Shown in pieces: positions 41,001 through 43,426 of a DNA stretch of 64,000 nt. The stretch spans positions 8,783 to 72,782 of the forward strand of contig JADLEQ010000081.1 in assembly GCA_020846005.1 (NCBI GenBank), written 5' to 3'. The notes beneath the pieces were generated by a model. That model made no database searches. It worked only from the letters and a program-made list of their open reading frames with translations, and was not told the origin of the DNA. Within the stretch, counting starts at the first letter, position 1. Every line of letters begins with the position of its first letter. The DNA is from Polyangiaceae bacterium (lineage in GTDB: Bacteria > Myxococcota_A > Polyangia > Polyangiales > Polyangiaceae). The position numbers and the translations under genes are program-made.

Positions 41001-41378
41001 AGGGGCGTCGCGGCGCGGGTTCGCCGCGCGCGCCTGGTTGCGGACGGTGATGAGCAGCGCGGCGACGTGCTTGCAGTGTTGGTTCGACTTCTGGAATGCC
41101 GGGCACGTGCAGGTCGAGGTGATGCCCTCGCCGCCGAGGTAGATCGCCACGTCGTAGGGGTCCGGGTCGGAGCCCTTCACTCGGCCGTGGGCGGCGCCGT
41201 CGTCGAGTCGCACGTCCTCCACGACGCGCCGCTTCTCGTAGTCGAGGCCGCGGAGGAACGTGCGCGCGCCGAGCAGCCGCCGCAGCCCACGATCGGAGAG
41301 CGTGGAGAGGGCGTCGGCGAGCGACGAGGCGGCGGCGGGATCTGCGGGGGAAGGGGAGGGAGAGTCGTTGGAGAGCAT
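38049..41378 (-). CDS. SNF2-family DNA-dependent ATPase with an N-terminal SWIM zinc finger
   Basis: Internal ATG gives MLSNDSPSP. The SWIM finger is [15 protein letters not shown]. The SNF2_N region has [32 protein letters not shown] and LDEAQNIKN. The helicase C region has [52 protein letters not shown]. Confidence 0.9.
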   Translation of the reverse strand: [1109 protein letters not shown]

Positions 41379-43426
41379 CAGAGGAATGTCGACAGATGGA
41401 GGGACACGAGCGCGGCGCCGAGGGCGGCGACGAGAGACAACGGGGCGATCGACGCCGGCGCGGCCGTGCGAGGCGACGCCGGGGCGGCGAGCGACGCTCG
41501 GGCAGACGCGAGCGCGGCGTTGGCGGCGCCGGCGGTCGCCAGCACCAGCGCGCACAGCGACGCCGCGATCGCGAACGCGGCGAGCGCCGGGGCGGCGCGC
41601 GCGGCGTCCTGCCGGGCGGCGAGCAACGCGCCGAAGAGCACCACGGGGGCGCCGAGCGTCAGCGCCACCACGGGCCACAGCCACGAGCGTGACGCGACGG
41701 TGAGCGTGTCGAGGCAGGCGCGGTAGCTCGGCACGAACGCCTCGCGCGGGCCCGGCGCGCTCTCCACCTGCCGCGTGATCTCACCGCGCGCCACGCGCCC
41801 CGCCCGGGTCGCGGAGCGCAGGGCGAGCCCGAGGACGGCGACGACGAGCGCCGTGCCGAGCAGCGCGCTCGGGGGCGTGAGCGCCGTCGGCGCGGGGCTC
41901 GCGCCGACGAGGGCCGCACCGACGAGCAGGCCCGCCGCGCTCGCGCTGAGCGCGAGGTGGGTGCGGGCGGCGCCCGCGGCGAGCCCCTCCCCCGGGAGGG
42001 TGCCAGCGGCCGGATCCCCACGGCGCACGGCGCGGTCGAGCTCGCGGGCGGTGTCGAGCGTCCGAAACGCTCCTGCCGTGGCGAGGGACAGCGGCGCGGC
42101 GGCGAGCCCGGCGGCGAGCCCGAGGAGGAGCGGCTGCGACGGGGCGGCGGCTCCCCCGAGCGCGCCCGTCGCGGCCGCGAGCGCGCCGACGAGCGCCAGG
42201 AGCGCGCCGGTGGTGGCGAGCGTCGCGCCGGCGCTGCCGGGGCCGGCGGGTTCGCCGTCTCCGGTCGTCGACTCCGCGAGTTCCCGCGCGAGCGGCCCGT
42301 GCGGGCGCGCGAGCGCGCGGAGCGCCCAGGAGAGGGCGGGCGGAGCGAGGGCGCCGATCGATGCGGCCGCGACCAGCGTGGGGGCGGAGTCCCGCGCGAG
42401 CCAGAAGCTGGCCGCCGCGCCGCCCGAGAAGGCGACCGCCGCGCCGACGAGCTGCGAGCGACCCACCGGCGCGAGGACGCTCTCCCCCTCGCGTGAACCC
42501 ACCGCGAACGCCGCGCTGGCCGTCGCCACGAGGCCGAACGCGCGCGCGAGGAGCGGCAGCGTGACGAGCGGGCCCACCGTCGCGAGGCCGCTCGCCGGCC
42601 CGGCGCCCCAACCCACGACTCCGAGCGTCACCGCGACCGCGGCCAGCGTGTGCTCCGCCGATCTCGCCGCCACATCGAGCGCAGCCGCCGACCCGGCGCT
42701 CACGAGCGCAGGATCGCGTGAGTCGGCTGCACCGAGCAGCGCTCGCCCCCGGTGGGTGCCCGCGGCGGCTCCGGCTCCGAACGAGCCCGCGACGTGGTGC
42801 ACGACCAACGACGCCGCGAGCGCGCCGAGCCCAAGCTCGGGGAGATGCGCGAGGAGCCCGGCCGGCGGCGCGCCGCTCGTGGTGATCCACGGGATACCGA
42901 CGACGACGAGCGCACCGGCGCAGGCCAGCCCGTCCGCGCCGAGCGCCGCTGCGGCCGACGCGCGCATCGCCAGGGTGAGGGCGCCGCCGCCGCCCGCCGG
43001 CAACACGACGACGACCCGCGGCGCGGCCGCGAGGCACGCGCGCGCGGCGAGGTGCGCGCTGGCGAGCACCGCGGCCGCCCCCGTCAGGACGGCCAGCACG
43101 GCGAACGGGACCGCCGCGCGGGGACCGGTCGCGGCCCTCGCCGCGCCCACCGCGACCGCGAGCCCGAAGGCGAGCAGCGCCGCGCGCCGGTGGGCGCCGC
43201 TCAGGACCTCGCCGGTCGCGGCGTCGAGGGCGCGCGCAGCGCGGACGCGCTCGGCCGCGCCGGCTGGGCGCCCGCGCACCCAGACGAGGAGACCGGCGGC
43301 CGCGGCGAGCGCGGCGACGCACAAGATGGAGAGGAGCCCTAGCTCGGTCACGGGTCGATCGGGGTCGGCCGCCGTCCATGCCTCGCGCCCCGCTGCTGGG
43401 GACGCCTGCCAAGGCGAGCGGGTCAC
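41378..43426 (-). CDS. Polytopic Ala-rich membrane protein resembling a catalytically degenerate membrane pyrophosphatase (H_PPase family)
   Basis: 682 aa with high GC3 in this frame and many hydrophobic segments. Blocks line up by eye with M-PPase conserved blocks, but the acidic residues are replaced (see findings). The stop overlaps the SNF2 ATG (TGATG). The start is uncertain. Confidence 0.5.
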   Translation of the reverse strand: MTRSPWQASPAAGREAWTAADPDRPVTELGLLSILCVAALAAAAGLLVWVRGRPAGAAERVRAARALDAATGEVLSGAHRRAALLAFGLAVAVGAARAATGPRAAVPFAVLAVLTGAAAVLASAHLAARACLAAAPRVVVVLPAGGGGALTLAMRASAAAALGADGLACAGALVVVGIPWITTSGAPPAGLLAHLPELGLGALAASLVVHHVAGSFGAGAAAGTHRGRALLGAADSRDPALVSAGSAAALDVAARSAEHTLAAVAVTLGVVGWGAGPASGLATVGPLVTLPLLARAFGLVATASAAFAVGSREGESVLAPVGRSQLVGAAVAFSGGAAASFWLARDSAPTLVAAASIGALAPPALSWALRALARPHGPLARELAESTTGDGEPAGPGSAGATLATTGALLALVGALAAATGALGGAAAPSQPLLLGLAAGLAAAPLSLATAGAFRTLDTARELDRAVRRGDPAAGTLPGEGLAAGAARTHLALSASAAGLLVGAALVGASPAPTALTPPSALLGTALVVAVLGLALRSATRAGRVARGEITRQVESAPGPREAFVPSYRACLDTLTVASRSWLWPVVALTLGAPVVLFGALLAARQDAARAAPALAAFAIAASLCALVLATAGAANAALASARASLAAPASPRTAAPASIAPLSLVAALGAALVSLHLSTFL

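Follow-up and report, generated by a model that had tools for sequence, protein, structure and literature searches.

What becomes of a membrane pyrophosphatase (M-PPase) once its active site is gone? The question is raised by an open reading frame (ORF) on the minus strand of a 64,000-nucleotide stretch of Polyangiaceae bacterium DNA (contig JADLEQ010000081.1; this whole stretch is hereafter the window). A sequence-only reading had taken the ORF for an M-PPase homologue whose catalytic Asp and Lys residues are replaced. We find that the window gene is a genuine M-PPase descendant that has kept the 16-helix M-PPase fold. It is no one-off: it stands at the extreme end of a whole Polyangiaceae-restricted family with a remodelled active site. 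Its product is probably a non-catalytic membrane protein of the M-PPase fold under weak constraint, a pseudoenzyme and the most eroded copy of that family.

The relationship escapes direct searches. With the window protein as query, Pfam returned no family even at E <= 10, PF03030 (gathering score 29.7 bits) included; the hmmscan that had been put forward as a check thus came back empty. NCBIfam gave no match at E <= 10 either, and phmmer of the ORF against PDB sequences gave none. A word-indexed homology search, swamped by the Ala-rich composition, recovered the protein itself only, or four proteins with a profile query. Homology is visible only via intermediates, profiles and structure. BLASTP against three reference M-PPases from annotated replicons, each confirmed by PF03030 at 819-971 bits, yielded matches that are weak yet collinear and fall at the blocks named in the sequence-only reading: residues 533-609 of the ORF pair with 537-615 of the S. 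meliloti M-PPase (34% identity, E 4e-6), 149-316 with 117-288 of a Clostridia M-PPase, across the DSRDPALVS region, and 456-576 with 524-649 of an actinomycete M-PPase. Among 1.8 billion cluster representatives phmmer found 37 full-length relatives of ~700-725 aa (E 1e-16 to 9e-4, 30-36% identity), and PF03030 is matched by 34 of the 38 aligned members, at best with E 1.8e-91. Compared in hhalign, the family profile and a canonical-enzyme profile align from N- to C-terminus over 662 columns (probability 100%, E 1.8e-54). Finally, a family hidden Markov model (HMM) built from 66 members, with the window copy left out, detected one domain in one frame of the window DNA, covering HMM positions 1-695 of 718 (E 1e-63, 204 bits); the other frames gave no signal. 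With this score the window copy ranks below the canonical sequences P0068-P0071 against the same HMM (457-545 bits).

Modelled by AlphaFold2 with the family alignment, the sequence forms 16 long helices (pLDDT 88.3, pTM 0.92). In a Foldseek search of the PDB, the best 36 matches are all M-PPases from Vigna, Thermotoga and Pyrobaculum (TM-score 0.72-0.80), and the next match scores at most 0.16. The best of them are the Thermotoga maritima Na+-PPase and the Vigna radiata H+-PPase (4AV3, 5LZQ, 8B21 and 4A01, 5GPJ, respectively), aligned over ~730-760 columns with probability 1.00 and an identity of only 12-20%. Full-length homology and the fold of 16 transmembrane helices (TM) are also common to the window protein and the Pyrobaculum aerophilum enzyme (PDB 8B37), a K+-independent H+-translocating M-PPase. 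The predicted model shows the window sequence to be compatible with the M-PPase fold. The proposed homology is borne out, and the structural comparison suggested along with it points to M-PPases only.

We tabulated the functional residues from two MAFFT alignments and the hhalign alignment. The Vigna numbers of the remaining Mg-binding Asp and Asn residues, which we take to be those of PDB 4A01, were placed by motif arithmetic. This mapping agrees with the Ballesteros-Weinstein-style spacings in PMC5150537 and PMC10897367. In M-PPases the phosphate contacts are made by K5.58 and K16.38; D6.43 and D16.39, with K12.50 as switch partner, serve to activate the nucleophilic water; and the ion gate consists of D6.50, E6.53/6.57, S6.54, D/N16.46 and K16.50 (PMC5150537, PMC10897367); the semi-conserved Glu at 6.53 or 6.57 is used in classing all M-PPase subclasses (PMC10897367 Table 1).

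Little of this is left in the window protein. R5.50 has become H210, K5.58 A218, D253 A221 and D257 H225; D279 (6.35) and D283 (6.39) correspond to A244 and A248, and D6.43 (D287) faces a gap, with D251 adjacent and its placement ambiguous. D6.50 is conservatively replaced by E258, positions 6.53 and 6.57 carry Leu and Ala, and S6.54 is Ala. D507 is kept as D458; N534 is Leu, K12.50 Arg and D691 Ala, and the pair K694/K695 (15.64/15.65) is represented by one Arg, R643. D723, D727, D731, K16.38 and D16.39 are deleted, the last two as part of a missing TM16 segment that also carries D16.35, and both N16.46 and K16.50 are Leu. The hydrolytic centre retains about 1 of its 13 residues, and an intact gate is missing: among the PPi (pyrophosphate)-binding Lys, the Mg-binding or water-activating Asp and the gate residues, only D458 and the conservative E258 remain. 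None of the PPi-contacting lysines K5.58, K15.64 and K16.38 is found in the protein. The hydrolytic centre, the charges of the coupling funnel and the ion gate of the Thermotoga and Vigna enzymes (PMC5150537) are all missing. Column by column, these tables bear out the claimed replacement of catalytic Asp and Lys, and they reject an ordinary hppA with its acidic residues conserved. A protein of this sequence would have no canonical means of binding Mg2-PPi, activating the nucleophilic water or gating H+/Na+, which would make it a pseudoenzyme. Whether Ala codons at former Asp positions lie one step from GAC can be asked at three sites only, where the codons are mixed.

The four blocks that had been aligned by eye are true homologous positions, as seen from BLASTP for block 3, the Clostridia alignment for block 2 and hhalign for blocks 1 and 4 (Table 1). 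Block 1 is in register in the hhalign alignment; the E of its canonical EGA is a conserved Arg in the family and Ala69 in the window protein. Of block 2, aligned to the Clostridia M-PPase, only D235, R237, P239, R255 and E258 are retained. Block 3 is the segment best conserved with canonical M-PPases (E549, R552, Q553, P566 and Y568; BLASTP E 4e-6), and its columns are invariant or nearly so over the family and the canonical enzymes. In block 4, D691 is lost and KK is down to the single R643.

The same loss, in a milder form, runs through a family. Scanning species-representative genomes with an alignment of 10 sequences as query, we found 35 loci, almost all labelled as Polyangiaceae, Myxococcales or Polyangia metagenome-assembled genomes (MAGs). 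The gene is intact, at 710-725 aa, in 31/31 loci whose contig holds it whole. Across the 68 members other than the window copy, Lys is absent from both K5.58 (A in 37) and K16.38 (G in 55), Asp from D6.43, and Glu from 6.53 and 6.57; D16.39 is N in 38, with Asp not among the residues listed. Arg occupies 15.64 in 54 members and 15.65 in 62, Phe replaces N534 in 35, and Gln replaces R5.50 in 47. Other positions are kept: D270 in 63 of the 68, R272 in 62, N273 in 64, D6.39 in 45, D6.50 in 53, D507 in 39, D530 in 49, D723 in 40, D727 in 44 and K16.50 in 47. The resulting family signature comprises Q5.50, E at K261, DDxRNPA, D6.39, R6.47, D6.50, F at N534, RR at 15.64/65, GDxxxD..GN in TM16, and K16.50. 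Conservation of the replacement residues themselves points to a new stable state and not to random decay. From this signature the window copy has D235, R237, P239, R255, E258 (conservative) and one Arg of RR; it has lost Q5.50 (His), D6.39, F534, K16.50 and all of the TM16 motif. Beyond the rest of the family, then, it lost nearly all remaining Mg-binding aspartates and the gate Lys16.50.

Conservation of orthologues in Myxococcota had been raised as a point to check, and the answer is a degenerate family in 35 Polyangiaceae-type species genomes, at the same syntenic position. The finding is thus larger than the sequence-only reading supposed, because it concerns a whole family with a conserved gene context; it is weaker for the window copy, which is more eroded than any other member and may be on its way to loss. 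Against the NCBIfam equivalogs ('sodium-translocating pyrophosphatase', TIGR01104) family members score 97-381 bits vs cutoffs of 546-1321, where canonical controls reach 1072-1306. In the public sources consulted, every named family member nevertheless carries the automatic annotation 'sodium/proton-translocating pyrophosphatase' or 'K(+)-stimulated pyrophosphate-energized sodium pump'. Such working-pump labels would mislead metabolic reconstructions of Myxococcota MAGs.

Where the family may have come from is suggested by the metagenomic sequences P0068-P0072. These are fully catalytic, with all catalytic Lys and Asp and with K12.46/T12.49/E6.53, the signature of K+-independent H+-PPases (PMC10897367 Table 1). 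With the degenerate family they share Gln 5.50, ADLVGD (Leu after D6.35), Arg 6.47 and His 16.46, and among sequences outside the family they score best against its HMM (392-545 bits). Unlike them, the degenerate family has lost K5.58, K16.38, D6.43, D16.39, N534 and the gate Glu. Next to the canonical P0068-P0072 genes there is neither ExbBD nor SNF2, their neighbourhoods being unrelated. Judged by these shared residues, the degenerate family would derive from the P0068-P0072 subgroup, its catalytic loss having accompanied residence in the ExbBD/SNF2 block described below.

A graded series emerges, from catalytic P0068-P0072 over half-degenerate P0073 and the remodelled family to the almost blank window copy. 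It amounts to a natural mutagenesis experiment that separates structural from catalytic or coupling residues. M-PPases have been treated as mechanistically uniform; here the fold persists under selection, over long evolutionary time, without the hydrolytic centre. Pseudokinases and pseudophosphatases likewise combine a conserved fold, replaced catalytic residues and family-level purifying selection. In open-access papers and bioRxiv we found no prior account of inactive or degenerate M-PPases, of a pseudoenzyme of an M-PPase-type primary ion pump, or of a PPase-ExbBD link. The family would add a pseudoenzyme to the class of primary pumps, where we found none described.

Three further sequences are eroded in ways of their own. 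P0073 (726 aa; L044, L045) has the TM5/TM6 side of the hydrolytic centre eroded and the TM15/16 motifs GGAW.SAKK and GDTVGDPFKD intact; its gene adjoins one for an outer-membrane efflux protein (OEP), outside the ExbBD/SNF2 block. P0040 (659 aa, a Deltaproteobacteria MAG) and P0041 (799 aa) are M-PPase-like, and their active sites have been lost in different patterns. In P0040, K5.58, D5.61, D5.65, K16.38 and D16.39 are kept, and DDPRNP and the whole DNVGDNVGD block are lost; at 377 bits it lies under every NCBIfam cutoff, yet its name is 'sodium/proton-translocating pyrophosphatase'. M-PPases may have degenerated catalytically on several occasions.

The window gene is the positional orthologue of the Polyangiaceae family, since the same SWIM/SNF2 helicase gene follows it directly. 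A helicase orthologue, 74-79% identical to that of the window, comes next downstream on the same strand in essentially all 35 loci; the gap is 25-110 nt in the relatives. In the window the two genes overlap at a TGATG, a typical translational-coupling arrangement. Genes for FtsW and a penicillin-binding protein (PBP) lie beyond the helicase. On the other side, ExbB-ExbD-ExbD sits directly upstream on the same strand in 28/29 loci with enough flank, and also beside the deeper or more eroded members P0005, P0013 and P0075. Each set has one MotA/TolQ/ExbB and two ExbD/TolR genes. This one-plus-two layout is also that of the myxobacterial AglRQS gliding motor. The motors of this kind (ExbB/ExbD, TolQ/TolR, MotA/MotB, AglR/AglQS-type) are neighbours of the M-PPase-like gene only, with no sequence relationship to it; both concern transmembrane ion flow. 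Between the ExbB/ExbD set and the M-PPase-like gene 113-572 nt intervene, which makes co-transcription uncertain. The conserved adjacency to an ExbB/ExbD motor and an SNF2 helicase is an unexplained gene association, and the pairing of a helicase with a polytopic membrane protein is puzzling. A second, divergently oriented ExbB-ExbD-ExbD set stands beside the first in L008 (both sets at 2153-7722), L013, L033, the contig of P0005 and L046, and also in L040 and L041.

In the window, what lies upstream is a Cys-rich ORF, a tandem-repeat array and a tRNA-Leu. The missing ExbBD block and these other neighbours indicate that a rearrangement severed the block at the window gene's 5' edge. A tie between erosion and ExbBD loss is unsupported: P0005 and P0013 are strongly degenerate yet keep the linkage, and L022 lacks it and is not unusually eroded.

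The 682-aa ORF that had been described is right in its frame, its high third-codon-position GC (GC3) and its richness in Ala, Leu and Gly; its length probably needs correction. Codon 26 reads GTG-ACC-GAG-CTA, (M)TELGL, in line with the N-terminus MTELGLI of relatives. The relatives have no extension equivalent to the first 25 codons, and AlphaFold2 confidence over residues 1-20 of the 682-codon product is low (pLDDT 45-52). An NCBI protein of 657 aa, 'hypothetical protein IT376_17160 [Polyangiaceae bacterium]' (P0001), is 100% identical to the window protein. Given the match of codon 26 to the family N-terminus and this 657-aa record, the shorter gene is the most likely one (Table 1). GC1/GC2/GC3 of the ORF are 0.82/0.67/0.92, with clear codon-position periodicity (GC3 0.92-0.93), and its product contains 29% Ala, 15% Leu, 11% Gly, no Lys, one Asn and one Tyr. 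Two more frames of this ~80%-GC stretch run 648 and 685 codons without a stop, so that length and intactness of the ORF are weak evidence in themselves. A frameshifted pseudogene is rejected: the gene is one uninterrupted frame, other frames give no family signal, and each of its ~17 internal indels specific to this lineage is a multiple of three. The only sizeable loss removed 13-22 residues in frame ahead of TM16, and with them the TM16 GDxxxD motif. A promoter/terminator consensus scan of 41200-45400 found none, a result of little weight in 80%-GC myxobacterial sequence.

Table 1. Features in and around the M-PPase-like gene (window coordinates).
Feature	Position	Strand	Size or residues	Description
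M-PPase-like gene, most probable extent	41378..43351	minus	657 aa	GTG start 43351, stop TGA 41380-41378; predicted 16-TM all-helical membrane protein
Maximal ORF	41378..43426	minus	682 codons	
5' extension of maximal ORF	43352..43426	minus	25 codons	GTG at 43426; probably untranslated
Block 1	43175..43261	minus	residues 56-84	GAAERVRAARALDAATGEVLSGAHRRAAL; cytoplasmic start of TM2, equivalent to canonical G..RM.EI...I.EGA.AYL.RQY
Block 2	42650..42736	minus	residues 231-259	LGAADSRDPALVSAGSAAALD-VAARSAEH; loop 5-6 and TM6, remnant of canonical segment ending ADLF
Block 3	41690..41806	minus	residues 541-579	RAGRVARGEITRQVESAPG..VPSYRACLDTLTVAS; cytoplasmic end of TM13 and loop 13-14
Block 4	41498..41536	minus	residues 631-643	TAGAANAALASAR; TM15, remnant of GGAWDNAKK, hhalign register
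Helicase gene	38049..41378	minus	1109 aa	Pfam domains SWIM (zinc finger), SNF2_assoc, SNF2, Helicase_C; conserved downstream partner
TGATG junction	41376..41380	minus		M-PPase-like stop 41380-41378 overlaps helicase ATG 41378-41376 by one base
Shadow ORF over the gene	41775-43721	plus	648 codons	Arg/Pro/Ala-rich nonsense translation, no family HMM match
Shadow ORF over the gene	41781-43838	minus	685 codons	Arg/Pro/Ala-rich nonsense translation, no family HMM match
Cys-rich ORF	43574-44914	minus	446 codons	directly upstream of the M-PPase-like gene
Tandem array	44786-45069		~14-17 copies	16-nt unit GGGTCGCACTGTCGCC
tRNA-Leu(CAA)	45098-45182	minus		
ORF with methyltransferase domain	45259-47256	minus	665 aa	

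Is the protein still under selection? In the closest genome pairs dN/dS (NG86) is 0.08-0.33 for the family, and these pairs give 0.02-0.04 for the helicase next to it; dS is near saturation in most pairs, and the values are those of the relatives only, the window lineage lying outside. The family is under purifying selection, 3-8 times looser than the helicase. The window copy is 27.5% identical to the other members (range 24-32%), its helicase 77.6%; the remaining family pairs in that helicase-identity band stand at 37.3 +/- 4.5%, which leaves the window copy ~10 points of excess divergence. Of 102 columns with at least 80% conservation among the other family members it keeps 63, where shuffles of its own residues keep 11.8 +/- 3.1. 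Gly, Ala, Arg and Pro (GARP) make up 0.53 of the window protein and Phe, Tyr, Met, Ile, Asn and Lys (FYMINK) 0.033, vs 0.39-0.46 and 0.07-0.13 in relatives. The composition of the helicase barely shifts (0.34 vs 0.30-0.33 in relatives), and GC3 of the window genome is the highest of the set.

From these data we favour, as the probable reading, a pseudoenzyme under weak constraint. On this sequence evidence the window protein most likely continues to be produced, translated together with the helicase, weakly constrained and non-catalytic, and would be drifting towards Ala, Gly, Arg and Pro under strong genomic GC pressure. Any remaining role would be structural, that of a membrane scaffold or partner and not of a pump.

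Several observations weigh against it. At the level of alignment, a one-residue gap shift could place D251 at 6.43, and MAFFT and hhalign stand one residue apart around 15.61-15.65, so that K15.64 corresponds to R643 or to Ala. The Foldseek match depends on sequence homology, because an M-PPase-like alignment drives the AlphaFold2 model. There is no ExbB/ExbD match within the 64-kb window, and the metagenome scan returned no close orthologue of the window copy. With a column retention of 62% it ranks last among the full-length members (median 89%, next lowest 65%), and of 21 positions where the family majority is D, E, N or K it keeps 6. Low retention, polar loss and loss of upstream synteny could also be the look of a gene on its way out.

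The strongest alternative, possible though rather unlikely in our estimate, is that the gene is an eroding relic, its product without a function of its own. Its frame would be open through recency in stop-poor 80%-GC DNA or through read-through to the helicase; ribosomes would have to read through to initiate the helicase at TGATG, and the target of selection would then be the ORF's translation and not its product. The stop/start overlap thus supplies a reason for an open frame, and other frames of the region are open for ~650-685 codons too. The lowest conservation in the family (62% vs a median of 89%), the excess divergence, preferential loss of charged and polar positions, the deleted TM16 motif, a composition strongly drifted with GC pressure and the loss of an ExbBD linkage kept by 28/29 relatives all agree with a relic. 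Yet 63 of 102 conserved columns are retained where chance would leave ~12, all of the ~17 indels are multiples of three, and the HMM finds a single end-to-end domain in one frame. Synonymous sites are saturated at ~22% helicase divergence; by now a sequence evolving neutrally would be past recognition. The 16-helix architecture is also confidently predicted in the model. Relaxation could still be recent.

More doubtful is a lineage-wide repurposing, in which dead M-PPases derived from a K+-independent H+-PPase, retained by purifying selection and set between ExbB-ExbD-ExbD proton-channel motor genes and the SWIM/SNF2 helicase, would serve a non-hydrolytic purpose, as an ion-conducting or regulatory partner of ExbB/ExbD or as a membrane anchor of the helicase. 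The window copy would then be the outcome once the ExbB/ExbD linkage was broken. If true, primary ion pumps of the M-PPase class would gain their first described pseudoenzyme lineage.

We regard it as improbable that the protein is a non-catalytic partner of a canonical M-PPase, a dead paralogue that heterodimerises with a canonical enzyme encoded elsewhere and modulates it. M-PPases are obligate homodimers with half-of-the-sites behaviour and inter-subunit coupling (PMC10897367), and the retained fold includes TM10/13/15, with TM13 and loop 13-14 the part best conserved with canonical enzymes. Fully catalytic enzymes with the family markers do exist in metagenomes (P0068-P0072), but these canonical relatives occur in unrelated gene neighbourhoods, and the 64-kb window holds no canonical hppA.

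An enzyme or ion pump still active through unconventional residues, such as Arg for Lys, is highly improbable. It could draw on R643 at 15.64/65 and on D458 and E258 at the positions of D507 and D6.50; some pseudoenzymes do bind ligands in unusual ways. Against it stand the absence of the phosphate-contacting Lys 5.58 and 16.38 and of the water-activating Asp6.43 and Asp16.39 (roles: PMC5150537), the deletion of the TM16 segment with D16.35, K16.38 and D16.39, the survival of only ~1 of 13 hydrolytic-centre residues, and the lack of both Lys16.50 and the gate Glu. That the ORF is a GC-driven artefact and no gene at all, as 80% GC, two overlapping ORFs of like length and missing Pfam and NCBIfam matches might suggest, is rejected as next to impossible: the family HMM hits this frame alone (E 1e-63), homologues in 35 species hold the same syntenic position, and the GC3 periodicity fits the coding frame.

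Some features upstream of the M-PPase-like gene are noted in their own right. In the product of the 446-codon ORF a putative signal/lipobox (..LAALGAGC) and a low-complexity linker rich in Gly and Ala are seen, and the C-terminal half is rich in Cys; neither Pfam nor NCBIfam has a match for this ORF, and related loci lack a counterpart. The tandem array also shows 31- and 47-nt periods, with up to 90% matches, and adjoins the tRNA-Leu(CAA) gene at the edge of the region of broken synteny. In the 665-aa ORF, ~400 residues without a domain match precede a C-terminal part of 250 residues that matches the DREV methyltransferase family PF05219 (E 2.7e-36), a family mostly discussed for eukaryotes (METTL9-like).

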